Under the pieces are notes generated by a model that was not told where the DNA came from, ran no database searches, and saw only the letters and a list, made by a program, of their open reading frames with translations. From contig CM060732.1 in assembly GCA_030704615.1 (NCBI GenBank), positions 75,206,001 to 75,270,000 of the forward strand: 64,000 nt of DNA, written 5' to 3'. Positions within the stretch are counted from its first letter, which is position 1; every line of letters begins with the position of its first letter. This stretch comes from Takakia lepidozioides. Taxonomy: Eukaryota > Plantae > Bryophyta. Positions 1 through 56,100 of this stretch are shown piece by piece. A program made the position numbers and the translations under genes.

Positions 1-1174
1 CTTCTAGTTTCTCCCCCGTATTTATTTACAAGAAGGGAGTAGTATAAGAAGCATTGCTTATGTGTAACCACAAATTTGACAGACAGCAGAGGATCTGGCA
101 TGCCCACCATACGCAAAGTGTAGGTTGTGATATCATCAGGAGTGAGATTGGTGAGGAACTCCGAAGTTCCATAGAGTTTGCAGAATAAGCACAAACCAAA
201 ACTTCAGGTTAGGCACACTACTTTGCTGAGAAGAAGCTTAGGTGAGTTATTAGATTCCTTCAATCTCCCTGCTGCTTTATTTTGCCCATCTTTGCTATCC
301 TCAGGCCATCCCTCAATGCATGGATTCTTGACCACGACCGTAAGAGACATCCCACCGGATGCTCCTTTTCAAAACTGCAATTTTTCCACTTGGTGGGTGG
401 GCAATTAGTTGGGATAGTCTCAGCTGGTTCACGTCGTGTGTGTTTTCTTCTCGCCCATCCGGCATTTCACCATTTGAAGCGCTGAAGAGCAGCAGCTTTC
501 TATCTGTCTTCTCACATTTTCAAGAAGTGCAAGGTATGCACGTACGAGCACTTTATTCGGGATCGCCTTTTGGTCACACCAGAAATCTTAAAAGCAAGTA
601 CGCAGATATTGACTTGGAAATGTAGAACACAAAGCCGAACCCCACTGCACAATTACAAACTTTCAAGAAATAGGATTCTCAATTGGACGAAACAGGCATA
701 CTAAGCCTCAAATGTCTGCAACCTTCACTTTCATGATAGATCTTAACACGGTAGTTTACAAACAGTAAATACTGGGAACTGGTGCAACGAGATCGGTATT
801 ATTGTAAATGGTAGGCACTCTTGGCTTGTTGAGACATCCGCGAGAAAGGATCTGCACATGCTCGGAACAAGTAAAGAATAGTTAGAGATCAAAGTGCACC
901 CTTTCTTCTCCCTTTCTTTCAGTTTCGCCCAGATGCAACACTCACTTTCCAACAACAATATGCCCCCCCCATCATGCGCCTGGCCTACCGGAAAACATTC
1001 AATCTTCAACGATCTCCATCCCCCATTTCAAATTGCACCTGTTTCTGCACTTGATGTGATCACCTGTATATCTAAAAAAAAGGGACTTTTCATGCACAAC
1101 CCTGGTGGAGATGATGCAAACCATAACCCAGCAGATACCAAAAGAGAATAGAGGAACAGCACCGATCTGCAATT

Positions 1175-24060: not shown

Positions 24061-24490
24061 ATGTAACCCTCATTCCATGTAACCCTCTCTGACCCTCTGT
24101 AACCCTCACCACCATGTAACCCTCTGTGACCCTCTATATCCCTCACCAGGTGTAACCCTTACCTCCATGTAACCCTCTGTAACACCGCAGAGTGTCACCC
24201 TCGCCACCATGTAACCCTCACTCCATGTAACCCTCACAAACCCTCTGTGGCTTTGTAACCTATGTAACCCCTCTGTAACACCGCAGAGTGTCGCCCTCAC
24301 CCCTTATGTAACCCTCACTCCATGTAACCCTCTATAACCCATGTAACCCTCTGTGACCCTTTGTAACCCTCACCACCATGTAACCCTTTGTACACCGCAT
24401 AGTGTCACCCTCACCCGTATGTAACCCTCACTCCATGTAACCCTCTCTGACCCTCTGTAACCCTCACCACCATGTAACCCTCTGTAACAT
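24061..24490 (+). repeat. Internal C-rich block of the same TGTAACCC array
   Basis: ~24061-24202 is the reverse complement of ~26244-26385. Confidence 0.9.
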
Positions 24491-28315: not shown

Positions 28316-28574
28316 GGGGTGATGGTTGAACCCGGGGCGGGGGTTACAGGGAACTGGCGGACTGCTGGAAGCGGCGGACTGGTGTCGCAGAACGACAACG
28401 CAGGGGGCGACGACGACGCCGATGGGATGAGGGCGGGGGTGGGGAGGGATTGACCGAGCCCAGCCGGTTGCCTTTCGATGTCTGCCGGAGGCGAAGAACC
28501 GGCGGTACAGGTGTCAGGGCTGGACCGTCCTGACGCGCTTGCATTAAGTTCTTACATTATTCCTATTATCTTCC
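28316..28574 (-). repeat. Right TIR, unique outer part
   Basis: Reverse complement of 10487-10745, followed directly by the TSD. Confidence 0.95.
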
Positions 28575-28654
28575 TATTGTTGCAGTAGGTCAATAGCCAA
28601 CAATCAAGTGGGCGAAACAAAGCTAAGTAGGCGAAACAAAATGAACTATGACTA

Positions 28655-30796: not shown

Positions 30797-33700
30797 TCAC
30801 CAGTAATCACCACAAGAACAAATCCCATCTTCAAAGTGGTGGAAAGTAGTTAGCGTCCCATACAACAATTGCTCGGCCAACAATCTTTGAGATGAATTTG
30901 GTGGAGGTGTGGCAGTCTCCACACACTCGAAGATTCTTGATGAGTCATGCTGATCAGCCCAAAACCAATGGCAAGCTTCTCACTGTGGTGGCTAAGAGAA
31001 AATTCTTTTCCTCCACATCATGCAATAAAAAACGTGTGTCAGGCACATACCCCGCCTCCTTCATCTGCCCAGACAAACTTCTCAGCTCAGCATGGATTTC
31101 CTTAATTTTGGGATGCAACTTGTCATTTGGCTCCTTTTTAACCCCTCTGACCTTCATCATTCTTCTCACCTTTGCAGTATCATCCACTTGCCAGCTGCAA
31201 CATGGATGTTTGATATAGCACCACATAAGTCGTGGCATCCTGTTCATCCCACTTGAGGATAGATGTTGCCACACATTCAGCCATCTCCACATTGCCATGG
31301 ATTCTACAGGCACCAAGCAAGGCCTTCCACACCACAACATCTGGATTGATTGGCATTTTATTAATCAGGTCCACTGCCTCATCGAGTTGTCCCGCACGTC
31401 CAAGAAGGTCCACCATGCAGCCAAAGTGCTTCACTGTCAGATTGATACCATGATCTTCACTCAGGGAATCGAAGTAGCATCTTCCTTCATTCAGTAGGTC
31501 AGTGTGGCTGTAGGCAGAGAGAACACATATAAAGGTGATACTGTCCAGCTTCAAGCCTTTCTTTTACATTTCTTCAAATAGTTGTTGGACCTTCCTATGA
31601 CAACCATGTTGGGCATATCATGCGATCATCGCATTCCACGACACCACATTTCATTCAGCCATATTGTCAAATACTCCCTTTGCATCCTCATTGCAGTCAC
31701 ATTTCGCATACAAGTGAACCAGGGCAGTGTCCAAAATGACATTTGGTACAATTCCAGCTTTGATGATGTCACCATGAACCTCTTTGCCCTTTTCCAGGAC
31801 TGCCAGGCTTGCACACGCATTGCAAATGCACACAAACGTGATGTGGTCGGGCTTCACCCCTTCCCCCAGGCCTCCATCCCGCACCCCTGTTGTGCATATC
31901 CTACAAGCATGGCGTTCCATGACACCAAATCTCGTTCAGCCATATTGTTGAACACTCCCACCACATCCTCAATGCTCCCACATTTGGCATACATGTCTAC
32001 GACGGTATTGTTCAGAATCACATTTGGTACAATTCCAGCTTTGGCGATGCAACCATGCACCTCTTTGCCCTTTTCCAGGGCTGCCAGGCTTGCACATGCA
32101 TTGCAAATACAAACAAATCTGATGTGGTTGGGCTTCACCCCTTTGCGCAGAATCTGCTCATAGGTCTCAAAAGCATTCCTACCACACCCATGCTTGGTAA
32201 ATCTTGCCAACATTATATTCCACGTAATCAAGATCGTTGAGGCATTCTGTTGAATGCTTCCGCATCTTTTGCTCATAGGTCCCCAAAGCCTCCATCCCAC
32301 ACCCATGTTGGGCATATCCTGTGATCATCGCATTTCACGACACCACATCCCGTTCAGCCATGTTGTCAAATACTCTCTTTGCAACCTTCATGCTCCCGCA
32401 TTTCGCATACATGTCAACAAGGCTATTGTTCAAAATCAGATTTGGTACAACTCCAGCTTTCATATGTCAGCATGGACCTCTTTGCCGTTTTCCAGGGCTG
32501 CCAGTCGCGCACAAGCCTTGAGAATGCAAACAAATGTGACCTGATCGGGCATCACCCCTTGTTGTATCAGTTGATCATATGTCTCGAAGGCATTCCTACC
32601 ACAACCATGCTTGGTATATCCTGCTACCATATTGTTGAACACTAGACAGGCCTCCCTTACACTCCCATATTTGGCATACATGTTAACAAGGGCAGTCTCC
32701 CAATTACTGTATGACGAAACTCCAGCTTTGATAATGTCAGCATGGATATCTTTGCCCTTCTCCACGGCCACCATGCTGGCACCAACATTGAGAACACAAA
32801 TGAATGTGGCTTGCACACGCATTACAAATGCACACAAACGTGATGTGGTCGGGCTTCCCCCCTTCCCCCATCATGGACCTCTTTGCCCTTTTCCAGGGCT
32901 GCCAGGCTTGCACAAGCATTGCAAACGCTCACAAACGTGATGTGGTTGCATTTCACCCCTTCCCCCATCATTTGCTCATAGGTATGATCCAAGGCCTCCA
33001 TCCCGCGCCCCTGCTGTGCATACCCTGTAAGCATCACGTTCCATGACAACAAATCTCGTTCAGCCATATTGTTGAACACTCCCTCCACATCCTCAATGCT
33101 CCCACATTTGGCATACATGTCCACCAGGGTATTGTTCAGAATCACATCTGTACAATTCCAGCTTTGGCGATGCAACCATGCACCTCTTTGCCCTTTTCCA
33201 GGGCTGCAGGCTTGCACACGCACTGCAAACGCACACAAACGTGATGTGGTCACGCTTCACCCCTTCCCCCATCATTTGCTCATAGGTCTCCAAGTCCTCC
33301 ATCCCACGCCCTGCCGTGCATATCCTGCAAGCATCACGTTCCACGACAACAAATCTCGTTCGGCCATATTGTTGAACACTCCCTCTGCATCCTCAATGCT
33401 CCCACATTTGGCATACATGTCCACCAGGGCAGTATTCAGGATCACACCTGGTACAATTCCTGCTTTGGCGATGCAACCATGCACCTCTTTGCCCTTTTCC
33501 AAGGCTGCCAGGCTTGCACACGCATTGCAAACGCACACAAACGTGATATGGTCGGGCTTCACCCCTTCCCCCATCATTTGCTCATAGGTCTCCAAGGCCT
33601 CCATCCCACGCCCCTGTTGTGCATACCCCTGCAAGCATGGCGTTCCACGACTCCACATCTCGTTCAGCCATGATGTTGAAATTAACTCCCTTCATATCCT

Positions 33701-33987
33701 CGATGCTCCCACATTTCGCATATATGTCCACAAAGGGATTGTTCAGGATGACATCTGGTACAATTCCAGCTTTGACGATGTCACCATGGACTTCTTTCCC
33801 CTTTTCCAGGGCTCCCAGGCTTGCACACGCATTGCAAACGCACACAAATCTGATGTGGTTGGTTTTCACCCCTTCCCCCATCATTTGCTCATAGGTCTCC
33901 AAAGCCTCCCTACTGTGCATACCCTGCAAGCATCGCGCTCCACGACACCACATCTTGTTGAAAACTGCCTTTGCATCCTTAATACAC
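30797..33987 (-). pseudogene. PLS-class PPR-E-DYW RNA-editing factor, heavily frameshifted, 5' part cut off by a Gypsy insertion
   Basis: Repeated P-L-S triplets (TALVDMYAKCGSIEDA..VFNNMAERD..SWN.MLAGYAQ.G.G.EALETYEQM..EGVKPDHITFV). E domain VVWKALLGACRIHGN, GYVPDT, HSEKLAIGFGLI, RVCGDCH and terminal [15 protein letters not shown] at 30797-30840. Many indels split it into short ORFs. Confidence 0.92.
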
Positions 33988-34158
33988 TGTCGTGCGCATA
34001 CATATCGTACACAACTACATCGCTGTCCAAAACCACACAACACATAGTATACCACTAGTCCACCACTAGGCCAGCCACTAGTCCAACCACTAGGCTACAA
34101 CTAGTCAGTCACTAGGCTGCCACTATGCTGCCCACTATGGCAGTCACTAGTCCACACA
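33988..34158 (-). repeat. 3' LTR of Gypsy copy 1 (171 bp) with internal CTAGTGG-like mini-repeats
   Basis: Begins TG right after the PPT and ends ...TATGCGCACGACA. The last ~55 bp match 53081-53135, and similarity stops exactly after CA in both copies. Confidence 0.75.
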
Positions 34159-34418
34159 ATCGCCCCCCTAGCTGGTGCTTAGGTCCCTCTAAGTCCAGGT
34201 AGCCACAAGATGTGATAGTGACCATAGCCTCACTAAGTCCTCCACCACTATCCCTACTACACTCAAACTCGATAAATCAAGAGGTCGGGTGCAAGAGTTG
34301 CCCCATCGTTAGTCGCCGTCTTGCAACCTGTGAACTTGAGCTTGGGATCTCATGTATTGACTCCTATGAGCTTGGCCTCCCATGTCTTGTTAGCTGCCTC
34401 CAGTCATGTCCACTGCCA

Positions 34419-35480
34419 CTATCCCAAGCAGTGTGGACACAACCAATCTCCGTCAGGAACCTTCTCAAGAGGTGATGTCAAGCATCCCATATGCCAACCC
34501 TTTGAGCTTCGATCACACACCAGCATGGTGGCTGCCTCTTTGGCAGACCCACAGAGCATGCACCTCAAACTTGCAGGTACCACTGCCAAGTTTGGGTCAA
34601 CTTTGCCATCGACATTGGGAAGGTGACATGGCGCACAATTACGCACATGGTCCTTCCAAGTCATGCCATCCCGACCCTCCAAGATCAGGACCCCTGAGGG
34701 CAACATCTTTCGAACCCTCAGAATAACACACCCTGCAGTAACATCCAAAGTCGTAGGAGCAGTCTGCTGCAAATAAACATAGTCACCAGGGCTAAACCTC
34801 CGACCCCCAGGACGATATCCTCCACCACGTATAGTGGCATACCTCAACGTATCACGGTGTTGTGCAATGGCAAGGTTCTCAAAAGCCATGGGCATGACTT
34901 TCTTGAACAACTCTGTACGCTGATCACATGCACGTACCCACACGTCCGGATCGTCAAGGTTAAGGACTTGAGCAGTGTCCCTACGAATGGCTGCAGGCAA
35001 ATCCGGCTCTCGGCCAAAGAGAAGGAAATATAGTGAGAAGGAGGCAAGTGATGCTTGTTTGCTGAACCTGTAGCCCATGGCTAACCAAGGAACCTGAAGA
35101 TCCCAATCTCCTAGGTGTCCCTTCTGCAAGCCATACTTGCGCAAACCCCTCTTCACCATCTGAATAACTCTCTCTGCTAAGCCATCGGCCTCAGGATGAT
35201 CCCGAGAAGTGGTGCGGTGGTCTATCAAGGCTTTATCACACAAATTTTGAAACTCCCCCAAGAACTCTCTCCCTTGGTCCGTGAGTACCTCAGCTGGAGC
35301 ACCAAATCGGCTAAGCACACGATCCAAGAATGCATACGCAGCCCCCTCACTAGCCTTGTCAGGCAATGGAACCAACTCAATCCACTTGGAGAAGTGCTCC
35401 ACCATCACCAACACATATCTGTGGTGGCGCATAGTCAGTGGCAACGGTCCTGCGAAGTCAAGACTCCACCTGTAGCCCAA
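34419..35480 (-). CDS. Integrase core + SH3-like segment + C-terminal PHD finger (copy 1, continuous frame)
   Basis: SLDFAGP..VLTDQGREF..GLAERVIQ (D,D,E), then FSPGDYVYL, then CMLC..CDRS..WHMGCL.SPLEKVPDGDWLCPHC (one PHD Cys replaced by Ser). Confidence 0.9.
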   Translation of the reverse strand: MGYRWSLDFAGPLPLTMRHHRYVLVMVEHFSKWIELVPLPDKASEGAAYAFLDRVLSRFGAPAEVLTDQGREFLGEFQNLCDKALIDHRTTSRDHPEADGLAERVIQMVKRGLRKYGLQKGHLGDWDLQVPWLAMGYRFSKQASLASFSLYFLLFGREPDLPAAIRRDTAQVLNLDDPDVWVRACDQRTELFKKVMPMAFENLAIAQHRDTLRYATIRGGGYRPGGRRFSPGDYVYLQQTAPTTLDVTAGCVILRVRKMLPSGVLILEGRDGMTWKDHVRNCAPCHLPNVDGKVDPNLAVVPASLRCMLCGSAKEAATMLVCDRSSKGWHMGCLTSPLEKVPDGDWLCPHCLG

Positions 35481-36989
35481 TCCATGATTGGTAAATGATG
35501 CAACTGTGGTGTAGGGGCGTTGAATGAAGCACGCACCCTGTCACACACCATGCACCTAGCCACGAACTGTTGCACCTCTGTATGTATACCACGCCACCAA
35601 TACTGCCCTTGCAGTAAACTGTGAGTGCGTCGCACTCCAAAATGCCCCAACTCCTCATGGACATGTCGCACTAACCGTGCACGCTATGTGGGGTGAGGCA
35701 CAATCCTCACCCGACCATCCTCCCACACTCGAAGTAGGTGTATCCCTCCCACTTGAACCTCTTGGCTCGTTGCAGGATCTGATCCTCTCCCTGGCAGTCA
35801 CAGTGGCTGCCGTGTCTCCCGTGCGGAGGTAGTCCAACACAGCCGAATCCTCATGTATATCTCTGGCACCACTTGGCTCATCACTAGCCTCAGGGTCCTC
35901 AGACACTCCGTCTACAGTCATCCCTGTTGTAGGTCCAACCTGACCTCCCGATGCAAGATACACAAAAATGCAGATGCGTGCCATCCCGACACCATCTCCT
36001 CGTCCGTCTCACCATGCCACCGAGCTCCAGTGTCATCCTGCTGACTCATGCATGGATTACGACTCAATCCATCCGCATCCCGATTGACCAAACCTGGTTG
36101 ATGCACAACCTGAAAGTCATACTCCTGGAGTATGAGTGCCCACCATGCAAGCTTCCCCGTAAGCTTGTCTGACTCCATCAACCACTTGAGTGGCTGGTGA
36201 TCCGTGACAAGGGTGAAAAGATTGCCGTATAGATAGAAGTGTGCCACGGCCCACACTGCAGCTAAGCACTCTCCCTCATATGAGCTGTACTTAGCCTCTG
36301 CAGCGTTGTTCGAGCGGCTAACATAAGCCACCACTACAAACTCTCTTCCCTCATCATCCACCGTTGTGAGCACCGCTCCAAGCCACAGCATGCTCCAATC
36401 CGTATGCAGCTGAAAGGGACGCCCCCTGATAGGTCGTCTCAGGATAGGCGCCGAGGTCAACCTTGCCTTGAGCTCTTGAAAAGCTTGTTCCTACTCATCT
36501 TCTCACTGCCAATCCTGGTCCACCTTGGTCAGCTTGGTTAGAGCTTTTGCAATGGTACTAAATCCCTTGGCAAACCGTCAAACTGAAGGCAAAGCAATTC
36601 CTGTAAGCCCTCAGGAACCGCCGTATACGTCGTCTCTTCCTCCGGTGACAATGGGTCCAATGTCAGGCTCCCAATTGTCCTCCTGTAACTGCAACCTTAA
36701 GTCCAGTGGGCTTAGAGGTAGAGGACGCGTCCAGTGGTTGCTATGTTGCAACCTCTTGGAGCAGTACTCCCTGCCTGCTCAGTCAATGACAGGCCTCATC
36801 CTGCCCCATCATCTCATCCTCGAGGACCTCCTCAACCCGAAGAAGAATCCCAACCTCATCCATCACAGCCGCCTTGGCTGCCACCTCCCTCTGAACCTCG
36901 AGCACCTCCCACGGTGTGCCTGGATGCATGCACCCATGGTCCTCACATGCTCGCCCCCACTCACTGCCTGTACCGTCTCGGTAGGCAGA

Positions 36990-38000
36990 GAGACCATCGA
37001 GGGAAGTATACTCCGCACTCTGCGTTGCTCAGCCAGAGCCAAGCTGATAATCCAGGTCAAGCAATTGAGATCCATTGCTTGCCCCAACACTTGACGATGT
37101 GATGCCTCAGAAAGAGACGACACCGCCGTGGTACTAGTGGTAAAAACCATTGCCCGCTCACGCTCGTCAGCATTAGGCTCCACTAACTGCTGCAACTGAG
37201 CATCCCACAGGAGGCCAGGTCCACTATCCCGGAAAGCATGCGATCCTGGGAAGCTGAGCAGTGTAGGTAATGCTGACTCGGTGGTTGACACCACCTTGTT
37301 TACCATGGCCAAAGGCGACATGGTCATCGTGTCTCACACGCTGAGACTGCCTTCTGTGTCCAGAATGCTATCCACTGTGAGATGTGCTGGCCGCTGCACA
37401 ACCCATCAAATGCACGCTTGAGCAGTGCGGGTGACATCAGTTAGTCCACCATAGCCGTGGACGATGAGCCCGTGACCCCACTGTAGCTGCATCTAGCAAC
37501 ACTGCTGACCCAAGCCATGACCGGGACTTGATGCACACTGGCCATCACCCTGGCCCGAGAATCGCCCATCAGGGGCACATTCTCCAAGATGTATGCTGGA
37601 GATATAGCTTGACGAAGCTGCAAGTGGCGCCAAACCCGCACATCTCCCAAAACAGACCCGACCTCGAGTCTCGCAATCCATTGTCATGCCCAGCTGATGA
37701 ATGCCCTTGGCAGGGCCAACCTGCCACTAACCAGATCAATGGAGCCAACCCGCTCAAATCCTGCGCCCCAACAACGAAATGTCTGCTAGCAAGGCCTGCT
37801 GATATCCATGAATTGCAGACACTGACAACAACTCAGGGGGTACCGCCACCAACTGAGCAAAATGGCGAAGTGAAACACATCGTGCAGTCTCATCCCTCTC
37901 CACATACAGGTAACGCCGAACTCGTAATATGCCTGTAACACAGCAGCCAATCCGGTGCTGATCCCGCCACAAAGTCCAGGAAGAAAAATGCCTTCATCCG
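36990..38000 (-). pseudogene. C5 cytosine DNA methyltransferase domain (copy 1, frameshifted)
   Basis: Motifs IV (VAGWPCQG), VI (ENV), VIII (HRPR), IX and X are recognisable across frames. The motif I region near the gap is indel-rich. Confidence 0.88.
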
Positions 38001-38115
38001 GATACTGCCACACAATAGGTGTGGTGTCCAATGGAGACAACTGAGGAGGGTCCTGGGCTGCAATCACCGAACTCTCCTCCTCTCCTGACGTTACAAAAGC
38101 CTACACCCAGGCTTG

Positions 38116-42457: not shown

Positions 42458-45453
42458 TGAGTGCTTTTCCCACCCCTCTCATTAACATTCATTCAAGGTA
42501 CATTTAGGTTTATCTAATAATATAGTATGATTGGTAAGCATACATGAATCAAAATTACGACGTAAGTATTGATGCGTTGTTCACTACGCACATTGTGGCC
42601 ACGACTTGATGCCCAAGCTCGCAATCACATTGCACACGAGGCATTTCGCGCCGGTCTACTTGCAGTTTCAGGGCAGGGTTGGTCTCACCTTGAGGGAGGT
42701 GTTGGAAGCCGTCTTTGACACGAAATCTGAACTGTGTACGGGCCATACGTTGGCACCGATATTCCACCGATACTTCAACATTCCAAAAGGATTTCAACAC
42801 CAAAGGGAGCACAAAAGTGCCTTATGTGAAATTCTGCAAGTGCTGGAAGAAGAGGCAGAAGAGGTACACAGATTCGAAGAATGAAGCAAGGCATCCGCAC
42901 CATACAGTGGGTTTCAAAAAGGAAATCAAGATTCGGTGGGCTATCTTTGCATCAAGCTTTGTGGGTCGACTTCCACAGGGGCTGTCAATGAAACAGCTTG
43001 CACATCTGAAGAAGGGCCCTGCACATCAGTCTGCATTCAGTGGATCTCAAAGAGTGGATGGTGCACTGCGTTCTCAAGAGTTGAAGGAGCTTTTCTCAAC
43101 AGCCGCCGCCAATCATGCAGTTCTGGTGGTTCTGACAATGAAAGAGAGACACATGGATTGTTGCAATTTTGTGGCAGCCCATGGGAGGATCCAATCTATA
43201 AAAACGCTGCGGAGACAAATGCAGTGGGAGGGATCACTTTGAATGGTTTTTTTTCTAAGGGCAGGTTGAGAGAGTGTTGTGGTGTACTAGACTTCCAGGC
43301 ATTCATTGTGTAATGGAGCGCGCCAACCCCGCTCTCCACCACAGGTGCTAGCAGTAGCTGCTGCATACCCTGAGGTCTCTCCCACTAGATGAGCCACTTC
43401 TCGGCGGCGCACAGTTGGTGCAACAGAGGAGGTTGCTCCATGCGAAATTGACCTGCTCTTGAGATCGCCCAAAGAAGTGTAGCGAAGGGATAGCTGGCAG
43501 TTTCAGGGCGCGCAGCACTGATGGCACTCAAGTGTGCTCTTGCTAGCATTTGGAACGCTCTCTATGCCCACATCTACAACCAGCTTCAGCTCCCAGTCCA
43601 CCCACATTTCTGCACCTTCCTCGCCATTTTCGGCCATCTGAGGAGCCTTGTTGCGACCAGTCCTAAAGGTAGTGTTGCCTCGTCCACCCTAACCTCCCGA
43701 CAGCAGCAGCTCCTGCTTCCATGGAGTTCCAGCAGAACATCGCCATTCCTTCCGTCTTCCAAACGTCGTGGCCTTTGTGTTGACATTGGCTTCACTTGCT
43801 TTAACCTTGAAAAAAAAAAAAAAAAAAAAAAAAAAACTATTATGAAGGTTTGAAGAGGAGTCCCAAGGAATTCTTAGGGAACCTGCAGTGAATCCCAACA
43901 GACGTGGGAACAGTTTTTAATGGTGAGAACGTTTTGGTGTTAATTTTTTTTTTTAAAAAAAAAAATGGCATTTTGATCTAATTTGAAGGATTCAGAGCCT
44001 GGTTGGTCATATCTTTGTCAAATGAGCTCCGTTTGACTCAGTTCTTGAGGGGATAGCTGCAGAAAGGGGAAATCTACCTATCTAGACCTGGTTTTTGTTT
44101 TTGGGACTCTGCTAAAAATCTATGGAATTTTTAGAGTGTGAGTGTGCCATGAAAGATCCACAATCCTGTCTCTAGAACCTGTGCTGGTCTATATGAGAGA
44201 CAAATTGGTGGATGTACTCCTTGCATGGCTGGGGGAAATGAGGACGTAATTGAAGGGCAGGTCTCTTCTCTTAGTCTGTGCACACAAGGTTTTGAGTGGA
44301 GAACAGTTGGACGAGTTGATTGCATACTGGGAGTCAGGCATTAGCAGTAGACAACAGACTGCTGTAGTTGGCATTGAGGGCCTCAATATCGCCTTGGACA
44401 GTCAGAACTCTGTTGGAGCCAGCAGTTCTGCAGCTGTAGGTGAAATACCAAAGTGGGTGAAAGCTAGGCTTGGAACACAGCCAAAGACAGCCCCGGGGAC
44501 CAAGGTGTTCAGCCACAAGGCCGTGGTGTACTGGAGCAGAGGAGCAGGAGCTACACAAGTTTGTGCAATCAGACATGGTTGCAGCCGGATACGCTCTGCA
44601 CAGGGCAACCACGAGCGGGGGTTCATCAGCAATGACATGTTTGTTGTGCGTGAAGGAGATGCAGTCATTCGCAATGAGGACACCCGCAACCGTCTCAAAG
44701 CTTTCGAGTTTGAGAGACTATCAGACCCTACCTTTGTTTTCTTTAGTGTTCAGTGAGCGGGAGATAGGGGAGTATTGCTTTGTCTCTACCTTGGCAGAAA
44801 GAGGAGGAGGGTTGGTTAGAGCGAGCTACTGTAGCTTGGGACAAGGTTAGTGGCAGGTTTCTGGACATAGATATACCTCCTACACCTTACCATCACGCAG
44901 AGCGAGGCACTTTGAGAGAAGTCTGGAAGTTGATAGCATAGATCAGGATTAGATCTTGCTTGGGCGGGCTTCTATTCTTCCCCTCCATCTCTGTACTATT
45001 TTCATTACCTTGTACTCGTAGTTGCCAAAGCCTCTCTTGGTGGAGGCCAGTCAGTCCGGGGTTTTGGGCTGGGATATTCTGCAGGATCAGCATTGCAGCT
45101 GGATTTTGGTGTGGGGGTGTTGATGTTTTGATTTCTTGTGTTTGGATCCCCCCCAACACCTGCATGCTTGACTGTGCGCCATGTTGGTTTTGTGTGGGCG
45201 CTTGCTTTCATAGGGATTAGGCCGGATTTGATCACCGGTCAATCCTAGAGTATGCTGTCGGTGGTGAGGCTGGAGTGATGACCAGCAAGACCACCAGTGT
45301 TTCTTCTATGGTGAGGCTGGGTTGATGACCAGCCAACCATAGGAGTTCTTGCGGTGGATGCAGGTGCAGGTGCCCTGAGCCATTGGGATATGACCCTTAA
45401 ACTGCAACAGGTGCCCACCCGTGTCACTATTAGATTAGTACTAGAGCCTTATA

Positions 45454-47070
45454 GTGTCACGTGGAGGAGGTGCACATTGTGAGTGTCATTACGGAGTTAC
45501 CCAGGGTTTTGAGGGGAGTACGGCTACAGGCAGTAACAGTGAGAGTGGGTTCACAAGACGAGGTATTCGGTTCAGACCACCTTCACCGCCACCCTCAATT
45601 ACTGTAGAGTCAGACACAGACTCGGAGGCTTCATCAACAGGTGTGCACTTTCATTCGCCATTGTTGTGGGACGACATGGAGGAGATGTATGGAGCTACCA
45701 AGGGGCCTCGTAGGTACTCTGGAGCTGTGGGCACAATCGAGTTGGATGACTTTATCCAGGAGTTCGACAGCTGGTGTGATTTGCAGCAGATGCGCAATCC
45801 ACAGCTATTCACCCCATTCATGGCGTGGAAGGGACTGTTCCAGCATTTGGAAGGCCCGCCTATGGACGATTACCACGAGTTCAGGCGAGGACATGAAGCA
45901 GAGATTGAGGAGTGGAGGATGTATTGGTCACCTGACTACGTCTCCATTACTCGAGGCACGACGCGACCAGTAGCTGCATCAGTACCAATAGCTCCCACTG
46001 CCAGCACTAGTAGTGGAGCAAGTAGTGCTGGTACTTCTGTAGGTGGTACCAGTTCAAAAGGTGCTACTACTCCTCCTGCCACGACTACAACACATGTGCC
46101 TAGATTCAACCCGGTGGTGGAGTTCTTCCAGGAGTTGCGGAGGAACTACCAAGGTGTACGGACTGAGAAGCTGCGAAGTTTGCAAGACTTCCAGCGCAAA
46201 CCCAGTGAGAGCCTGCGAGAGGCGTACACTCGTATGAGGCGCTTGATAAGTGTGACCCAAGGGGTTACTGAAGCTCAGGCAATCCAGTTTTGGTATGGAA
46301 TTCTGGACAAGGAGCTCAAGAGAAGGGTGCGAGATGCAACCTGTTACAAGCAGCCCAACCCACATTAGCAGATGTGTTTCTGCTGGCTGAGCGGATTGAG
46401 CTCAACATGGTGGAGGAGCGAGTTGTTACCATTGGATTTGGCAAGGACATGCCTGCACGAGGCGCAGCTGCCAGCCCACAGGCACAAGGTACTGCCCAGC
46501 AGCGTGGTCAGGGGGGCAAGGTTTCCCAGCCCAAGTTCCATGGAGCTTACAGGGGACCTCAGGTGCAGAGGCCCGTGGCATCTTTTGCAGGCCAACAGTA
46601 ACCAGGGGTGATATGTTGGACATGTGGAGGACCCCATGTCAAGAGAGATTGCCCAGAGAGTGGCAGAAGGCCGGCACAAGCACAGCCTGCACAGTTGCAG
46701 TGTGGGCATTGTGGCAAGTATGGGCATGGAGATGCCCAGTGTTATGACTTGCATCCTGAGTTGCGCCCAGGCCAGTTCCAAGGGAACAATGGTGGCCGGG
46801 GGCGAGGTGGACCAGCCCAGAGAGGACGAGGTGGTCAGGCACGAGGTGCAGGCCAAGGGCAAGCTTAACATGGCCAAGGACGCGGAGGTCAGGGTGTTGA
46901 TCAAGGCATGGCCAACCGGCTTCAGCAGCTAGAGCAGAGGCTCGCTGCCATGGCTATAGCTCAGGCGGTACCGGCTCCCAGGCGGGATGGTCCACCTCCT
47001 GCTCCTGAGGGAGGAGATATGGGAGGCATGGGATTTATGTGCAGAGCAGCACTACCACTAGAGCAGGTGG
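45454..47070 (+). pseudogene. Gag with two zinc knuckles (frameshift ~46345, TAA at 46599 and 46866)
   Basis: DDFIQEFDSWC and KLRSLQDFQRKPSESLREAYTRMRRL (capsid-like), CWTCGGPHVKRDC and CGHCGKYGHGDAQC, followed by an RGG-rich tail. Confidence 0.85.
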
Positions 47071-47639
47071 AGGTGCTGCAGCCGTGACTCGAGGAGCAGC
47101 ACGAGTTCCTGAGGCACGAGGTGCAGAGGTGGAATTGGATCCACAGCGTGGGGAGGCAAGCCGTCAGGCGAGGCTTCCTCAGTCATTCACATTGGCGGAG
47201 ACTGTATCGACGCCATCCATGGCACCTAGTTCTCGCCCGACTGTTACCGAGGCGGAGGTTATCATGCCATTGGGGAGAGCTACACGTGCAGCATTGACTC
47301 CTGCTGCCAAGGCTAGTGCGGCCGGTGTGTTATTGGGGGCAGCCACCTCTGTGTGTCAGGCCCCACTGTTCTCGGCAACAATGATTGCGACGCCGGGGGT
47401 AAGGCCAGCTGCAGTGTTCAGACTAGCAGCAACACTCTGTGAGAGTGGGGAGGTCATTTCATCTTCTGCGGAGTTAGTGGAAGGTGTAGTGGCAGAGGGA
47501 TCCTCGGATTTGAGGGTCAAGACTGCCACGGCTGCGCCCTGGCAAGCTGCAGCTGCCAGGTTGACGGAGCTGCCAGCTAGGCTAGCCTTTGAGCGCGCCA
47601 TGGTGACACCTGGAGTTGTCTTGTTAGACAACCAGGGAG

Positions 47640-48030
47640 GCATTTTCACTTTGAGTGGACCGGCAGGCAAGAAGTACCGGCCACTGCGGGTCTTGTTGGA
47701 CTCGGGAGCTCAGCCACTGATGTTGGGCAGAGCTGCTATTGCAGGTTTGGGCCTCATGGAGGCGGATATGGAGCCTTGCCCTTTCCAGATACAGACATCT
47801 CTGGGAGGATCAGAGCAGGCTCGGGGCATGACACGACATCAGTTGGCCATTAGACTGCAGCCGGATCACCCTATCGATGGCTCAGTAATGCGAGCCAAGG
47901 CCATTGTGACAGACGCAATCTCTTACGATGTCCTCGTTGGTGGGGCAGTGTTATACCCCATGGGCTTCACCCTGGACTTTTGGGAGGAGTCAGCATCCTA
48001 CGGGCCTGGATGGCAGTCAGGCGATGGTCG
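47640..48030 (+). CDS. Retroviral-type aspartic protease domain
   Basis: VLLDSGAQPLML active site and YDVLVGGAVL C-terminal motif, in the same frame as DNMT motifs I-IV (ORF 47039..48835). Confidence 0.9.
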
Positions 48031-48409
48031 CCATGCACAGCTCCCTGTGACATTCATTGGGGGTATAGCGGCTGCCCAGCGGGGCAAGATGCCAACACTA
48101 GCCGCCTTTATAGCTGCAGTTAGTTGGCCTGGAGAGTTGCTGGAAGGCAATGCCCATGCAGAGGATGTGCCACCTCCAGAAGAGCAGGATGACATGCATG
48201 GTATGGCGGAGTTGCCTGCCATGGTTGCTCACACTCCATTATGGGGTACGAGCAAGGATTTGCAGCAGGTTGCTGATCGACGGGTACAACAAGCCTGGGT
48301 AGAGGCTTTTTTTCCGTCAGGAGAGGAGGAGAGTGCGGGTATTGCACCAGGACCACCTCAGTTGTCGCCATTGGACACCACACCTCTTGTGTGGCAGCGG
48401 CCGGATGAA

Positions 48410-49380
48410 GGCATATGCTTTCTGGACTTGTTTGGCGGGATCAGCACTGGATTGGCTGCAGTGCTACATGCAGGTGTACGAGTTCGACGTTACCTGTATG
48501 TGGAGAGGGATGAGACTGCACGACGCGTCTCACTGCGCCATGTTGCTCAGATGGTGCAGCAGTACCCTGAGTTGTTGCTGGTGTCTGCAGTTCGTGGATA
48601 TCAGCAGGCCTTGCCAGCAGACATTGCGTTGCTGGGGGCGCAGGATTTGGAGCGGGTTGGCTCCATTGATCTGGTAGTGGCAGGTTGGCCCTGCCAAGGG
48701 CATTCATCAGCCGGGCATGGCAATGGATTGCGAGACTCGAGGACGGGTCTGTTTTGGGAGATGGTGCGGATTTTGCGCCACTTGCAGCTTCATCAGCTGT
48801 ATCTCCGGCATACATCTTGGAGAATGTGCCACTGATGGGTGATTCTCGGGCCAGGGTGATGGCCAGTGTGCATCAAGTCCGGTCGTGGCTTGGGTCAGCA
48901 GTGTTGCTGGATGCAGCTGCAGTGGGGTCACGGGCTCATCGTCCACGGCTTTGGTGGACTAACTTGATGCCACCCGCACTGCTCAAGCGTGCATTTGATG
49001 GGGTGCAGCGCCAGCACACCTCACCGTGGATGGCATTTTGGACACAGGGAGGCAGTCTCAACGTGTGAGACATAATGACCGTTCGCCTTTGGCAGTGGTC
49101 AACAGGATGGGTCACCCACGAGCAGCATTACCTACATGCTCAGCTTCCCAGGATCCCATGCTTTTCGGGATGTGGACCTGGCCTCCTGTGGGATGCTCAG
49201 TTGCAGCAGTTAGTGGAGCCTAATGCCGACAAGCGAGAGCGGGCTATGGGGTTTTCCACTGGGACCACGGCGGTGCCTTCTCTTTCTGAGGCATCACGTC
49301 GTCAGGTGTTGGGGCAAGCAATGGATCTCAATTGCTTGACCTGGATTGTCAGCTTGGCTATGGCTGAGCAACGTAGAGTG
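48410..49380 (+). pseudogene. DNMT3-like C5 cytosine DNA methyltransferase domain inside the polyprotein (four apparent 1-bp deletions)
   Basis: Canonical motif order: I FLDLFGGISTG (~48419), II YVERD, IV IDLVVAGWPCQ (48683-48697), VI YILENV (48820-48828), VIII AHRPRLWWTN (48937-48948), IX RERAMGF (~49234), X RRQVLGQAM (~49298). Confidence 0.95.
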
Positions 49381-49653
49381 CGGAGTGCACTTCCCTTGAC
49401 GGTCTCTCTGCCTACCGAGACGGTACAGGCAGCGAGTGGGGGCGAGCCGGTGAGGACCACGGGGTGTAGACATCCATGGCACACGTGGGAGGTGCTCGAG
49501 GTTCAGAGGGAGTTGGCAGCCAAGGCAGCTGTGATGGATGAGGTTGGGGATTCTTCTCGGGATGAGGAGGTTCTCAATGATGAGATGATGGGGCAGGATG
49601 AGGCCTTGTCATTGACTGAGCAGGAAGGGAGTACTGCTCAAGAGGTTGCAACA

Positions 49654-49662
49654 TAGCAACCA
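49654..49662 (+). promoter_or_regulatory. Candidate stop-codon readthrough signal TAG CAA CCA (UAG-CAR-YYA)
   Basis: Single in-frame TAG between the DNMT tail and the RT frame. Identical in copy 1 (36743-36735, minus strand). Confidence 0.7.
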
Positions 49663-52290
49663 CGGGACGCGTCCTCTACCTCTAAGCCCACTGGACTTAA
49701 GGTTGCAGTTACGGAGGACAATTGGGAGCCTGACATTGGACCCATTGTCACTGGAGGAGAGAGACAACGTATACGGTGGTTCCTGAGGGCTTACAGGAAT
49801 TGCTTTGCCTTCAGTTTGAAGGACTTGGGAACACTGAAGGGTCAAGAGATCCGTATTGAGTTGGCCACTGACACGCCAATCTTTCGGAGACCCTATAGAT
49901 ACAGTGACATGGAGAGGTCTTTGATTCAGATGAGGACTCAAGATCTCTGGGAGGCAGGTTTGGTGGAGCTCTCTAGTGGAGAGTATGCTTCAGCCACAGT
50001 GATGCCAGCTAAGAAGGATGTCTATGGCAATTGGACGGAGAGACGTATGTGCGGTGATTACCGGCCTGTAAATCGTCAGACCAAGTCCGATAGGTATGCC
50101 ATGCCGACACCAGAGGAGATCTTTGATGCCATTGGGCATTCCAAGGTCTTTAGCACGTTGGATTTACGATCCGGATATCACCAGTTGCCGATCAAGGAGG
50201 CGGATAAGCAAAAGACGGCATTCTGGGGGATCAATGAGCACGGGAAGGATTGCCTATACCAGTGGCGGTTCTTACCATTTGGGCTTAAAAACGCTCCCGC
50301 TGAGTTTCAAAGAGTCATGGACAGGATTCTAGCAGGGGTGGAGTTTGCTCGGTGCTACATAGATGACATCATCATCTTTAGTGCTACGGTGGAGGAGCAT
50401 GAGAGACACCTTCAGGGGGTATTTGAGTGCTTGAGGGCGCACGGATTGAAGTTACATCCGGGAAAGTGCAAGTTTTTCCACAACCAGATTGAGTATTTGG
50501 GACACATGATATATCCTGGAGGATTGGGGGTACAGCAGACTAAGGTAGGGTCCATTGCACAGGTTCCACGCCCCACGGATGTGAGCCGAGTTCGAGCTTT
50601 CATGAGGTTAGCAAACTATTACAGACGGTTTGTTAAGGGATTTAGTGCCATTGCAAACGCTCTAACCAAGCTGACCAAGGTGGACCAGGAGTGGCAGTGG
50701 GAAGATGAGCAAGAACAAGCTTTTCAAGAGCTCAAGGTGAGGTTGACCTCGGCGCCCATCTTGAGACGACCTATCAGGGGGCGTCCTTTTCAGCTGCATA
50801 CAGATTGGAGCATGCTGGGGCTTGGAGCGGTGCTCACACAGGTGGATGATGAGGGAAGAGAGTTCGTAGTGGCTTATGCTAGCCGCTCGAACAATGCTGC
50901 AGAGTCTAAGTATAGCTCATATGAGGGAGAATGCTTAGCTGCAGTGTGGGCCGTGGCACACTTCAGGTGCTATCTATACGGCAATCTCTTCACCCTTGTC
51001 ATGGATCACCAACCACTCAAGTGGTTGATGGAGTCAGACAAGCTTACGGGGAAGCTTGCACGGTGGGCACTCATCCTTCAAGAGTGTGACTTTCAGGTGG
51101 TGCATCGACCGGGTTTGGTCAATCGCAATGCAGATGGGTTGAGTCGCAATCCATGCACGAGCCAACAGGATGACACTGGAGCTCGGTGGCATGGTGAGAC
51201 GGACGAGGAGATGGTGCCCGGATGGCATGCATCTGCATTTCTGTGTATCTTGGCAGCGGAAGGCCAGGTTGGACCTGCAACAGGGATGACTATAGATCAA
51301 TTGTCTGAGGACCCTGAGGCCAGCGATGAGCAAAGTGGCGCCAAAGATATACATGAGGATTCAGTTGTGTTGGACTACCTCCGCACTGGAGACACGGCAG
51401 CCACTGTGACTGCCAAGGAGAGGGATCGGATCCTACAACGAGCCAAGAGGTTCAAGTGGGAGGGGACACACCTGCTCCGAGTGTGGGAGGATGGTCGAGT
51501 AAGGATTGTGCCTCACCCAATACAGCGGGCACGGTTAGTGCGCCATGCCCATGAGGAGTTGGGGCATTTTGGGAAGCGACGCACTCATAGTCTACTGCAG
51601 GGGCAGTATTGGTGGCGTGGTATGCACACAGAGGTGCAACAATTTGTGGCTAGGTGCATGGTGTGTGACAGGGTGCGTGCTTCATTCAACGCCCCTACTC
51701 CACAATTGCACCCTCTTCCGATCATGGGATTGGGCTACAGGTGGAGTCTTGACTTCGCAGGGCCGTTGCCACTGACCATGCGCCACAACAAGTACGTGTT
51801 GGTGATGGTGGAGCACTTCTCCAAGTGGATTGAATTGGTTCCATTGCCTGATAAGGCTAGTGAGGGAGCTGCGTATGCATTCTTGGATTGTGTGCTTAGC
51901 CAATTCGGTGCTCCAGCTGAGGTACTCACGGACCAAGGGAGAGAGTTCTTGGGGGAGTTTCAGGCTTTGTGTGACAAGGCCTTGATAGACCACCGCACCA
52001 CTTCTCGGGATCATCCTGAGGCCGATGGCTTGGCAGAGAGAGTTGTTCAGACAGTAAAGAGGGGTTTGCGCAAGTATGGCTTGCAGAAGGGACACCTAGG
52101 AGATTGGGACCTTCAGTTACCCTGGTTAGCCATGGGCTACAGGTTCAGCAAGCAAGCATCACTTGCCTCCTTCTCACCATACTTTCTTCTCTTTGGCCGA
52201 GAGCCGGATTTGCCTACATCCATTCGCAGAGAAGCTGCTACAATTCTTAACCTTGACGATCCGGACGTGTGGGCACGTGCATGTGAGTAG
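49657..52290 (+). CDS. RT - RNase H - integrase, uninterrupted frame
   Basis: RMCGDYRPVN, LDLRSGYHQ, LPFGLKNAPAEFQ, YIDD, FQLHTDWS, HEELGH..CMVC, SLDFAGP, TDQG and LAER. The frame is open from 49657, upstream of the annotated TTG start. The TAG at 52288 is CAG in copy 1. Confidence 0.95.
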   Translation, partial: QPRDASSTSKPTGLKVAVTEDNWEPDIGPIVTGGERQRIRWFLRAYRNCFAFSLKDLGTLKGQEIRIELATDTPIFRRPYRYSDMERSLIQMRTQDLWEAGLVELSSGEYASATVMPAKKDVYGNWTERRMCGDYRPVNRQTKSDRYAMPTPEEIFDAIGHSKVFSTLDLRSGYHQLPIKEADKQKTAFWGINEHGKDCLYQWRFLPFGLKNAPAEFQRVMDRILAGVEFARCYIDDIIIFSATVEEHERHLQGVFECLRAHGLKLHPGKCKFFHNQIEYLGHMIYPGGLGVQQTKVGSIAQVPRPTDVSRVRAFMRLANYYRRFVKGFSAIANALTKLTKVDQEWQWEDEQEQAFQELKVRLTSAPILRRPIRGRPFQLHTDWSMLGLGAVLTQVDDEGREFVVAYASRSNNAAESKYSSYEGECLAAVWAVAHFRCYLYGNLFTLVMDHQPLKWLMESDKLTGKLARWALILQECDFQVVHRPGLVNRNADGLSRNPCTSQQDDTGARWHGETDEEMVPGWHASAFLCILAAEGQVGPATGMTIDQLSEDPEASDEQSGAKDIHEDSVVLDYLRTGDTAATVTAKERDRILQRAKRFKWEGTHLLRVWEDGRVRIVPHPIQRARLVRHAHEELGHFGKRRTHSLLQGQYWWRGMHTEVQQFVARCMVCDRVRASFNAPTPQLHPLPIMGLGYRWSLDFAGPLPLTMRHNKYVLVMVEHFSKWIELVPLPDKASEGAAYAFLDCVLSQFGAPAEVLTDQGREFLGEFQALCDKALIDHRTTSRDHPEADGLAERVVQTVKRGLRKYGLQKGHLGDWDLQLPWLAMGYRFSKQASLASFSPYFLLFGREPDLPTSIRREAATILNLDDPDVWARACE

Positions 52291-52790
52291 CGTGCAGAGT
52301 TGTTCAAGAGAGTCATGCCCTGGCTTTCGAGAACCTTGCCATTGCACAACACCGTGATACGTTGAGGTATGCTACCATACGTGGTGGGGGCTATCGTCCT
52401 GGGGTTCGGAGATTCAACCCTGGTGACTATGTCTATCTGCAGCAGACTGCTCCTACGACCCTGGATGTGACTGCAGGACGTGTTATTTTGAGGGTTCGAG
52501 AGGTCTTGCCCTCATGCGTCTTGGTCTTGGAGGGTCGGGATGGCATAACTTGGAAGGACCATGTGCGTAATTGTGCGCCATGTCACCTTCCGAATGTCGA
52601 TGGCAGGATTGACCCAAACCTGGCAGTGGTATCTGCAGGTTTGAGGTGCATGTTGTGTGGGTCTGCTAAAGGGGCAGCCACCATGCTGGTGTGCGATCGA
52701 TGCTCTAGAGGTTGGCATATGGGATGCTTGACTCCACCTCTTGAGATGGTTCCAGATGGGGATTGGTTATGTCCACATTGCATTGGATAG
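52291..52790 (+). CDS. Integrase C-terminus with C4HC3 PHD finger (1-bp deletion near 52320)
   Basis: CMLCGSAKGAATMLVCDRCSRGWHMGCLTPPLEMVPDGDWLCPHC has all eight ligands. Confidence 0.92.
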
Positions 52791-53050
52791 TGGGAGTGGA
52801 TACAACCATGGAAGGCTAACAAGCAACGCAAGGCCCAGCTACTAGGAGACCTTGAACACACGAGATCCTGGCTCAAGTTCACAGATTGCAAGACGGCGAC
52901 TAACGATGGGGCTACTCTTGTACCCGGCCCCTTGGTCTATAGAGTTTGAGTACAATAGGGACAGTGATAGAGGACTTAGTACGGCTGTGGCTATTACATC
53001 TTGTAGCTATCTGGAGGTAGAGGGACCTATCCACCAGCTAGGGGGGCGAT

Positions 53051-53135
53051 TGTGACAGACTACTTTATTGTGCATATATGTGTGGTGTGGTTTGGACAGC
53101 GATGTAGTTGTGTAGCGATATGTATGCGCACGACA
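53051..53135 (+). repeat. 3' LTR of Gypsy copy 2 (85 bp)
   Basis: TGTGACAG...GCGCACGACA directly after the PPT. CACTA coding sequence resumes immediately afterwards. Confidence 0.72.
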
Positions 53136-56100
53136 GGATGTGCAAGCCATGGAGGATCTCTTAATGCATCATGTGGGCGCTGATGCATACCATGAAGAGG
53201 GAACCCGGCCAATCGATGATCCTGAAATGGCCCCCTCAAATGACATGGAGAGGGAGGGGAGAACTCCCTTGTACGAAGGGGCGAAAGTGAGTCGACTTTC
53301 AACAATCTTACTTTTGCTCAATCTTCAAATTTGATTTGACATAAGTAATGTTGGGATGTATGCCTTAATGCGAACTATTGCAGACTATATCCTTGCTCCA
53401 CACTTGAAACCCAAGATGCCACGGTCGCGGAAAGATGCGCGCGAAATCTTGGACTATGTGGGGATGGGCTATAAGATTTTTCATGCATGTCCATGTGATA
53501 AAACCCTATACTACGGAGAGAATTTGCATCTCACCAAGTGCCCAAAGTGCAAGAAACACCGATATCGAGATGATGTCCAAGGGAAAAAAGTACCACGCAA
53601 GGTATAAGCACCATTCCCCCTCGCATGGAGATTATTAGAGAGTAGTACTCATGCAAGATCTGATTGTGGTTTTGGAAGGAGTGAGTGAGGAGTGGAAGAA
53701 GCGACGTTTGGTTTTGACCATTCACACCCAAATGAGGGAGAGGCTGCATAAAGGGAAATACATAAGGTGTTGTATTATGTGTGCTAATGGGATGATTATA
53801 TGTGGGGGGCGTGGGGTATTTCATCCTAGAAAATGCATTACTTTCTGATCATCCCGCGATTGAGGGCACAGTACCGAAGCCCCAAATTGGCCAGACTCAT
53901 GAGATGACACGCCTCGCATCGGAGCCCCCCGAGAAAGGTGTGCGGGCCACACGATTCACAAACATGGAGGCATATTGAAGAGATGTGGCCTTTTCTCTTG
54001 GAGGACCCACGACATGTCCACCTCGGCTTCTCCTCGGATGGGGTCAACCCATTCTCTGTCTAGTCATGTAGTCATTCCACTTGGCCGGTGACCATGGTGA
54101 AATACAACATCCCTCCGTATCTTTCAATTAAAAAAGGTCATATCATGTTGGCTGCCATTGTGCCAGGTGAGTGTCCTCATTTCATGTTTATTATTGCCTT
54201 CGACTTTACATTAAACTTCTGATCTTTGACGCAATTCGGATGCAAGATTGATGAGTGACATAATCATGGAGTAAGACATGTAATTCATTTTGTAGTATAA
54301 TCTGCATATTGGTGGAGCATTGAAACAATGATGTGAATGTCTCAAAGGGAAAAAACAAGTGACAAACATGGACACGTACTTGCGACCTCTTGTTGATGAA
54401 CTTAAAGAGCTATGGAGGGGGGTCCCGGCATTGGATGCTTCGCTTGACCCTATGGCCGGACAATCTTTTCAGATGAGATGCATCTTGCTTTGGACAATGC
54501 ATGATTATCCAGGTATATTATGTTCCCCATGAACAACCCGCGTACATTCACTTGTCAATGCCGGATGAGGATGAGGATTGGGATTGATTGAAGTAGTGGC
54601 GACAGTCTTGTGCACCGTAGTGGGGTAGATGGCATTATGGGCCACACACATGACAACTTTTTATTTTTGCTAATGTGGCGGGATGTGTAGTACAGGACTA
54701 ACTGTTTGCTCAGGGCTAAGCACCAAGGGGTACCATGCATGCTTGCATTGTGGCGATGATCTTGATGCACATAGCTCCCGCCATCTTCACAAGATGGTGT
54801 ATCCCAACTACCGCAAATTTCTTCCTATGAGCCATCGATGGAGAAGAAGAGAGAAACACTTGTTTGATGGCAAAGATGAAGTACGTCCCCCCCCATGACA
54901 CCGTCCGGGCAGTTTTGGGAGGACCGACGGAAGGAGGCCCATGTGGGCACGGACGGTGAAGTGGACGTGCCCGGCATGAAACGACTTTTAATCTTCTACG
55001 AGTTGCCCATATTGGGCGGTACATATTTCACAAAAACACCGTCAATATCCCTATGCATGCATGTGATATTGCACATTTGGTATGCGTTGCATTGTCACTT
55101 TCACGTAAAAAAATTTGTGTAAGTCTTTGTAGGTGGGGATATATGTAGGACCTGAAGATTCGTCATCTTCTCCCATGCATATTGAGAAGAATGTCTACTC
55201 GTCCTTTTTTCAAGTTCTTCATGGCACGCCGGCAAAGAAGAGAGTGGCTGCAAAAGGAGATTCTCTCGGTGTTAGAAAGGAGCTTGAGGAGCAGGGTCGC
55301 ATGCGCCATCTATGGGCCGAACAAAATGGCGTGGACCCAAAGGGTGTTGTACGGTGGAAGTATAGGCGCGCACCTTGGCAATGGACAAAGGAGGAATACA
55401 AGAAAGTGATAGCCACCATAAGTGCTGTCCGAACACCAACTGGTTATGGGTCATCCTTCCGTACGAAGTTCAGCGAAGAAGACGGGGTCCATGGTTTGAA
55501 GTCTCATGACTACCACAATCTATTGCAAGACATCTTGCCCATTGCAGTACGTGGGACATTGACTCCCAAGTTTTGTGAGACAATCTATAGATTAGGAGGC
55601 TTGTTCCGGTGGATTTGCTCCAAAGAGTTGGAAGAAGCATATTTTCCACGCATGAAGAAGGAGGCGGTGGAGGTAATGTGTATGTTGGAGATGCACCTTC
55701 CTCCCTCCTTCTTTGACATCCAACTGCACTTGGTAGTGCACTTAGTGGAAGAGGCTTCGATTTCTCGGTGGATGTACTTCCTTGAGCGTTATATGAAGAC
55801 TTTGAAAGGATTTGTAAGACAAATGGCGCACCCGGAGGGTAGCATGGCGGAGGGGTATACGTTGCAAGAAGCTATGTTCTATTGCACGGAGTACATGGCA
55901 AGGGTGGATGAGGAATCCCCTCGGATGTGGAAGGAAGAGGAGGATGCATGAACCAAGGACATCGTTTTGCCCAAAAAATCGAAGATGGTAAAATTGCCGA
56001 CCTTGGTGATTGAGCAAGCGCATGACTTCATACCGAAGAACACCCTATCCATACATGAGTGGGATGCAAGATACAATAATCTTGTTCAGCAATGAGAGAA

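Follow-up and report, generated by a model that had tools for sequence, protein, structure and literature searches.

A conserved in-frame stop codon, probably leaky, between the methyltransferase and the reverse transcriptase in a clade of Gypsy-Dnmt3 retrotransposons

In KnitGypsy-Dnmt3 of Klebsormidium nitens, an unrearranged Dnmt3-like methyltransferase (DNMT) domain is encoded within the open reading frame (ORF) of the Pol polyprotein, together with protease (PR), reverse transcriptase (RT), RNase H (RH) and integrase (INT) in that order (PMC5890265). The main text of that description mentions neither a PHD finger nor readthrough at the junction, and why retrotransposons retain cytosine methyltransferases is put there as an open question. 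Here, we analyse two copies of a related element in a 64,000-nucleotide stretch of the bryophyte Takakia lepidozioides (GCA_030704615.1, contig CM060732.1, positions 75,206,001 to 75,270,000, forward strand; hereafter the window). The streptophyte host, the PR-RT-RH-INT order and the unrearranged DNMT domain are as in KnitGypsy-Dnmt3. In contrast to it, the DNMT belongs to the Gag ORF here, by way of a conserved in-frame TAG between DNMT and RT. Sequence comparison makes it very probable that this TAG is a programmed leaky stop.

Both copies carry TAG CAA CCA at the DNMT-RT junction, as the initial annotation had reported (copy 2, plus strand: ACA at 49651-49653, TAG at 49654-49656, CAA CCA to 49662; copy 1, minus strand: 36743-36735). 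They are ~90% identical, and a pairwise comparison of the part that they share uncovered no other break common to both, in agreement with the claim that the stop is their sole shared lesion. The picture of a frame otherwise open around the TAG is right for 49069-49653 and 49657-52287 of copy 2, but upstream just 195 codons are open, as copy 2 carries frameshifts of its own at ~48803, 49011 and 49140-49159. Further private frameshifts lie in gag and in the integrase tail of copy 2, and copy 1 has many 1-nt indels plus an 806-nt deletion. At 49652-49662, none of the letters varies at ≥1% across 859 run X2 contigs, and single contigs from X6, X10 and X11 likewise show no variant there. At 49651, A>G gives GCA before the stop in 76-93% of summed contig depth (a quantity not taken as copy number), which makes the ACA of the window the minority allele. 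The 33 indels between the copies (34155-38115) are mostly single bases and may be assembly errors, not decay; those at 49300-50000 do not appear among the indels listed for public contigs.

Window-related copies were drawn from public contigs and runs. The RT-proximal alignment holds 82 loci, namely the best 80 of 354 confirmed metagenome matches and 2 genome-collection loci. One of them (L082) has no RT match, 9 are outgroup, 3 do not reach the site and in 1 it is absent, leaving 68 informative loci, a number that includes duplicates and in which 52 loci form one family. The stop position reads TAG in 58 of these, TAA in 9 and GAG in 1, a decayed copy. The sense codon CAG, which the initial annotation had proposed looking for in intact copies, occurs in none (0/68). 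Conservation of the following hexamer, also predicted, holds in part: CAR-YYA is exact in the window and in 7 of 10 lineages, but not in the largest family (L004-type). By locus, 12/68 are exact TAG-CAR-YYA and 42/68 have CAA CCC. YYA is realised as CCA, CTA, TCA and TTA, and CAR as CAA and CAG. The second codon past the stop may thus be P, L or S, yet it is always YYA in the exact loci. Since all these forms occur across lineages with diverged flanks, selection acts on the nucleotides. TAG and the A at +5 are invariant in the 10 lineage representatives and the A at +9 is kept in 9; majorities in the 30 columns 5′ of the stop are 0.3-0.9, mainly 0.4-0.6. The flanking linkers change in length by whole codons (44-55 from the stop to F-A-F, 100-164 from DNMT motif X to the stop). 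As a chance background, TAG-CARYYA occurs at 1 of 1069 other TAG triplets in the same 14 sequences. A CARYYA context is reportedly also that of the stop in the plant LTR (long terminal repeat) retroelement SIRE1.

The junction stop is real and conserved, and probably functional. Passive copying of a nonsense mutation from a single dead ancestor would fit the decay of both window copies and of most loci, but it is hardly credible: the lineages share 52-75% identity in the RT-proximal stretch, with a synonymous difference of about 0.6, and yet keep the stop. In addition, both ORFs are intact in two relatives (L049 and L081), and a separate whole-length ORF2 is seen again in clusters of 33, 15 and 226 members.

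The element has the Gag-PR-RT-RH-INT domain order of Ty3/Gypsy LTR retrotransposons, with the DNMT domain (motifs I, IV (PCQ) and VI (ENV) present) between PR and RT. In L049, the best solved relatives of this domain are DNMT3A/B (E about 7e-8). A terminal repeat pair was found for none of copy 2, L049 and L001. L049 has, in a single frame, a 1369-codon ORF1 (Gag, knuckle, protease, DNMT), then TAG CAG TTA, then a 1047-codon ORF2 (RT-RH-INT-PHD). L081 has the same layout, with a 5′-open ORF1 of 1162 codons and an ORF2 of 1047 codons; in both, the junction stop is the sole break. In L001, a closer relative of the window, one 957-codon frame spans Gag to protease, and an extra TAG lies 5′ of the DNMT, where L049 and L081 have no stop. 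The frame break between gag and protease near 47070, which the initial annotation had assumed to be a lesion, is most likely just that, because L049 runs in one frame and the match across the break is in a single frame in 31 of 35 covering loci, judged by eye. We considered and rejected a programmed frameshift between gag and protease near 47050: by eye there is no slippery heptamer, those 31 loci are in one frame, and the break in L043 falls elsewhere. The L081 element (L081:1-9285), a near-complete plant-type Gypsy-Dnmt3 element, lies in a genome record with a cyanobacterial title; the contig is probably eukaryotic and misbinned. The two ends of L081 share 127 identical bases, as would those of a circular assembly.

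The close relatives that carry species names are from Sphagnum fallax, Marchantia polymorpha, Calypogeia fissa and Coleochaete scutata, and the L004-type family (e.g. L004:3243-3260) matches the S. fallax model P0027. No named K. nitens sequence is among the matches, and the viral contig collection gave zero relatives among 233 pattern matches. Two quick, midpoint-rooted trees confine the stop to one clade, with support of 100 and 99 in the Shimodaira-Hasegawa-like approximate likelihood-ratio test (SH-aLRT); the first left out 15 of 83 DNA rows (11 near-duplicates, 4 short). Outside this clade, DNMT and RT are fused in P0001 and P0003-P0008, with PR-DNMT-RT-INT-PHD as one protein in P0001, P0003-P0006 and P0008, and in 6 of 6 outgroup loci listed the frame continues from DNMT motif X to RT without interruption. 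In some more distant proteins (P0002, P0010, P0058 and P0060), Pfam gives no DNMT match, and long C-terminal extensions or degenerate DNMT-like regions are present. As the ten lineages share ancestry, they do not amount to ten independent gains; with the midpoint root, a single gain of the stop in a single-ORF ancestor would be the simplest history. Since DNMT and RT are fused in the outgroup and split here, these elements are a derived variant of the Gypsy-Dnmt3 kind and not the described family itself.

The 5′ end of ORF2 bears on how it is translated. Its first ATG is codon 85 in the window, 48 in L001 and 117 in L049 and L081. The ratio of nonsynonymous to synonymous substitution rates (dN/dS) for codons 21-116 is 0.03-0.08 in three pairs, comparable to RT, whereas codons 1-20 are under weak protein-level constraint (0.28-1.4). 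Low dN/dS 5′ of the first ATG means that these codons must be translated by a route other than initiation at AUG. One alternative to readthrough is termination followed by re-initiation at a nearby AUG or near-cognate codon, which would make RT-INT a separate protein. ATG lies right past the hexamer in the L004-type family and at codon 5 in L012 and L048, other lineages have GTG or TTG at +16..18, and gene callers begin ORF2 at ATG or NTG codons near the stop. However, in the window, L001, L049 and L081 the first ATG lies past conserved RT-proximal motifs, with coding constraint ahead of it. Positions +16..18 are GCG in the window and AAG in L001, and the arm of a predicted RNA stem described below accounts for NTG and for the G at +18. 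Moreover, re-initiation needs neither a shared frame of ORF1 and ORF2 nor a CAR-YYA hexamer. We consider it improbable as a general explanation; it may be restricted to the CAA CCC ATG family.

An internal promoter in the ORF1 tail would provide RT-INT with an mRNA of its own and leave the stop as an ordinary terminator. A weak junction promoter is known in Tca2 (PMC2194720), and the Coleochaete transcriptome holds a separate 'complete' ORF (P0020). We find this explanation highly improbable, since the CAR-YYA hexamer, the common frame and the coding constraint 5′ of the first ATG would remain unexplained.

Splicing of the kind seen in Ogre elements offers another route, in which some transcripts would lose an intron that spans the TAG or ends there, so that Gag-protease is fused to RT. 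TAG is a valid acceptor triplet, and named Sphagnum and Marchantia gene models (P0027-P0029, P0056) bypass the site, but these models are predictions with joints at differing places. The complete lack of CAG at the site, the composition of the 30 nt 5′ of the stop (only 0.13-0.40 T) and the presence of AG ≤12 nt upstream in 8 of 14 sequences all speak against an acceptor. The intact loci are also stop-free and in frame on both sides, unlike the 274-bp Ogre spacer. Splicing thus appears quite improbable. One X6 contig spans the site without a joint; its RNA nature is a guess, and it was too weak to be used.

The initial annotation overlooked what is likely a second part of the signal, a predicted stem downstream of the stop. 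In 18 of 19 sequences, 160-nt folds from the stop pair offsets ~14-30 with T-G-x-E-x-R codons that lie 80-125 nt downstream. The predicted stem begins 10-14 nt past the stop, recurs in 9/10 lineages and is missing in stop-less relatives. Its arms are pyrimidine-rich versus purine-rich in the group of the window (clade A) and mixed in the L049 group (clade B). Cognate arms pair at -18.7 kcal/mol versus -12.0 for non-cognate arms (9 of 14400 within-clade permutations), and they beat synonymous recodings in 8/10 lineages (p<0.05). In a scan of 31 segment positions, just offsets 11 and 18 share one partner site in 9/10 lineages, the rest in ≤4. Eight stop-less loci have no such partner (-7.5 to -11.4, versus -15.4 to -28.1 in stop-bearing loci). 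In folds of 90 nt past the hexamer, z-scores were weak (above -2 in 9/10), because these folds cut off the 3′ arm. We regard it as fairly likely that the modelled stem is real as a region-level pairing, while base by base it is unproven. In L049 and L043, the 3′ arm pairs with the 5′ arm less strongly than with a stretch of the ORF1 tail ~185 nt 5′ of the stop (-18.7 vs -21.5 and -21.2 vs -24.3), which could be a competing fold or chance.

Several observations weigh against readthrough, or against the stem as a part of its signal. The L004-type family (52 loci, 47 distinct) reads CAA CCC ATG, with an off-motif C at +9 and ATG immediately next; it has possibly switched to stem-dependent readthrough or to re-initiation. 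L012 and L064-66 carry TAG or TAA where CAR is expected, which we read as C>T decay, short of proof. An NTG codon stands at +16..18 in 7/10 lineages, and the Coleochaete transcript protein P0020 extends 91 residues 5′ of F-A-F, so that a stop is not at the usual distance. Within-species invariance of the junction is weak evidence and adds little, because few positions there vary (just 7 variant rows listed in 101 nt) and contigs also drop rare variants. As for the stem, L048 is the sequence without it in the 160-nt folds, and the arm segments of the cognate and recoding tests were picked post hoc from the folds, which is why the 31-position scan was run. Pair-level covariation in clade B does not rise above shuffles (56/500), with a double change at 1 of 12 pairs. 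The consensus folds of RNAalifold have a shifted 3′ partner in clade B and lack any long-range stem in clade A, where registers differ. Finally, a reporter need not bear out a conserved stop with a predicted structure, as Tca2 shows (PMC2194720).

In the readthrough mechanism that we favour, most ribosomes would terminate after Gag-protease-Dnmt3. A minority would decode the UAG and produce the full polyprotein, with RT, RNase H, integrase and PHD fused on. The CAR-YYA hexamer would aid this step, as probably would the predicted 3′ long-range stem, and by analogy with tobacco mosaic virus (TMV) in plants the inserted residue may be tyrosine (PMC2754532). The protease would then cut the polyprotein and free its domains. 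DNMT and protease would be made at Gag level and RT and integrase at a lower one, so the methyltransferase may be packaged in Gag-like numbers and could methylate new cDNA. More tentatively, and as a scenario that may well prove wrong, a bryophyte or charophyte ancestor of the clade could have shifted the recoding point 3′ of a captured Dnmt3 by means of a two-part signal of hexamer and stem. Each particle would then hold a capsid number of methyltransferases that methylate its own cDNA or host DNA before PHD-guided integration. If this is true, the element regulates an epigenetic enzyme through translational recoding. Should readthrough hold, it would indicate selection to make the DNMT as abundant as Gag and the RT only a fraction as abundant, point to a role needing many enzyme copies and predict a testable particle stoichiometry. 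It would also add a retroelement recoding site located after both protease and accessory enzyme, as well as a case of a type I hexamer combined with structure. Annotation pipelines split such elements or invent introns across the stop, and in this way keep the family hidden in bryophyte genomes.

Table 1. Coordinates of the retroelement features in the window (copy 2 unless stated otherwise).
Feature	Position	Strand	Basis or remark
Gag capsid part, stop-to-stop ORF	45445..46368	+	PF03732 E=4e-4, below Pfam cut-off; 49% identity to L001 ORF1; copy 2 frameshift at ORF end
Two CCHC-type zinc knuckles of Gag	46614..46742	+	Translation
Aspartic protease and N-terminal half of DNMT	47009..48835	+	PF00145 E=5e-10; motifs
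Protease LLDSGA	47693-47710	+	
DNMT motif I	48425	+	
DNMT motif IV (PCQ)	48683	+	
Frame break between gag and protease	near 47030-47070	+	Judged a lesion; relatives continuous
C-terminal half of DNMT and 115-codon tail up to the stop	48670..49653	+	Three frameshifts private to copy 2
DNMT ENV	48817	+	
DNMT motif X	49309	+	
Conserved in-frame TAG, end of ORF1	49654..49656	+	
CAA CCA, fits type I readthrough hexamer CAR YYA	49657..49662	+	Motif definition PMC3159437
5′ arm of predicted long-range RNA stem	49667..49684	+	Prediction only
3′ arm of predicted stem, within T-G-G-E-R-Q-R codons	49752..49770	+	Prediction only
ORF2: RT, RNase H, integrase	49657..52290	+	First in-frame ATG is codon 85
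TGA, end of ORF2	52288	+	Private to copy 2
C-terminal part of integrase and PHD finger	52287..52790	+	PF00628 E=2e-11; frameshifted in copy 2, in frame in copy 1 and L049
Polypurine-tract-like run, then TG	53040..53052	+	Common to copy 1
Copy 1, partial, more decayed	34155..38115	-	~90% identity to copy 2

The run at 53040..53052 resembles the polypurine tract of LTR elements. Starting ~150 nt past it, window positions 53200-56000 hold a decayed transposase sequence (DUF4218, E=2e-27), which we take to be CACTA-like and which may have disrupted the 3′ LTR of copy 2. Immediately past the corresponding run of copy 1, tandem units of ~300 nt occupy 31600-33980, perhaps within the LTR of that copy. 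Elsewhere in the window, a higher-order satellite based on TGTAACCC forms large arrays in inverted orientation ~15 kb apart (10700-13900, 24030-24490, 26220-28580). Two long ORFs of 696 and 347 codons at 20437-23897 on the minus strand have no Pfam match, the first containing 15-nt repeats. For nine other ORFs of the window, the search for protein families found just DUF4218, Peptidase_S26 and weak matches.

Among known recoding systems, the closest in sequence is the type I UAG-CAR-YYA site of TMV, which has the same stop and hexamer and likewise a polymerase downstream (PMC3159437, PMC2754532, PMC13517186). As at type I sites, ORF2 is in the frame of ORF1 and under coding constraint. Downstream structure is said to be unnecessary at such sites (PMC13517186), whereas a stem is predicted here, and one family of the present clade has CAA CCC. 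The stem resembles the readthrough stems of alphaviruses and furoviruses in its ~11-14 bp, its long loop and its start shortly past the stop; those, however, follow UGA-CGG or UGA-CUA with spacers of 7-12 nt, and here UAG-CARYYA is followed by ~10-14 nt, in registers that vary among lineages (PMC3159437). The Ty3/Gypsy elements Tj1, Tosmo1-3 and Tcry1 (bioRxiv 10.1101/2022.12.06.519325) and the Ty1/copia element Tca2 (PMC2194720) also have one conserved in-frame stop and a single-ORF ancestor. In contrast to the present elements, their stop has a TGA-C context, lies between Gag and protease and comes without a methyltransferase. SIRE1 likewise uses stop suppression in a plant LTR retroelement, but it is Ty1/copia, and its stop follows pol and governs an env-like ORF (PMC2829016). 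Ogre shares the division into GAG-PROT in ORF1 and RT-RH-INT in ORF2, with a spliced spacer averaging 274 bp between the ORFs instead of the single in-frame codon found here (PMC6317226). The initial annotation had contrasted a recoding point after the DNMT with the usual one between gag and pol; the position holds, but a protease in the Gag ORF is not unusual among plant Ty3/Gypsy elements (PMC6317226). In the article passages covered, which include those of the two papers that name Gypsy-Dnmt3 elements, we found no report of a DNMT-RT stop or of readthrough in such elements; an earlier mention elsewhere may exist. Taken together, Gypsy-Dnmt3 elements and retroelement readthrough were known already, and what appears to be new in this clade is the position of the stop between DNMT and RT, together with the long-range stem predicted past it.

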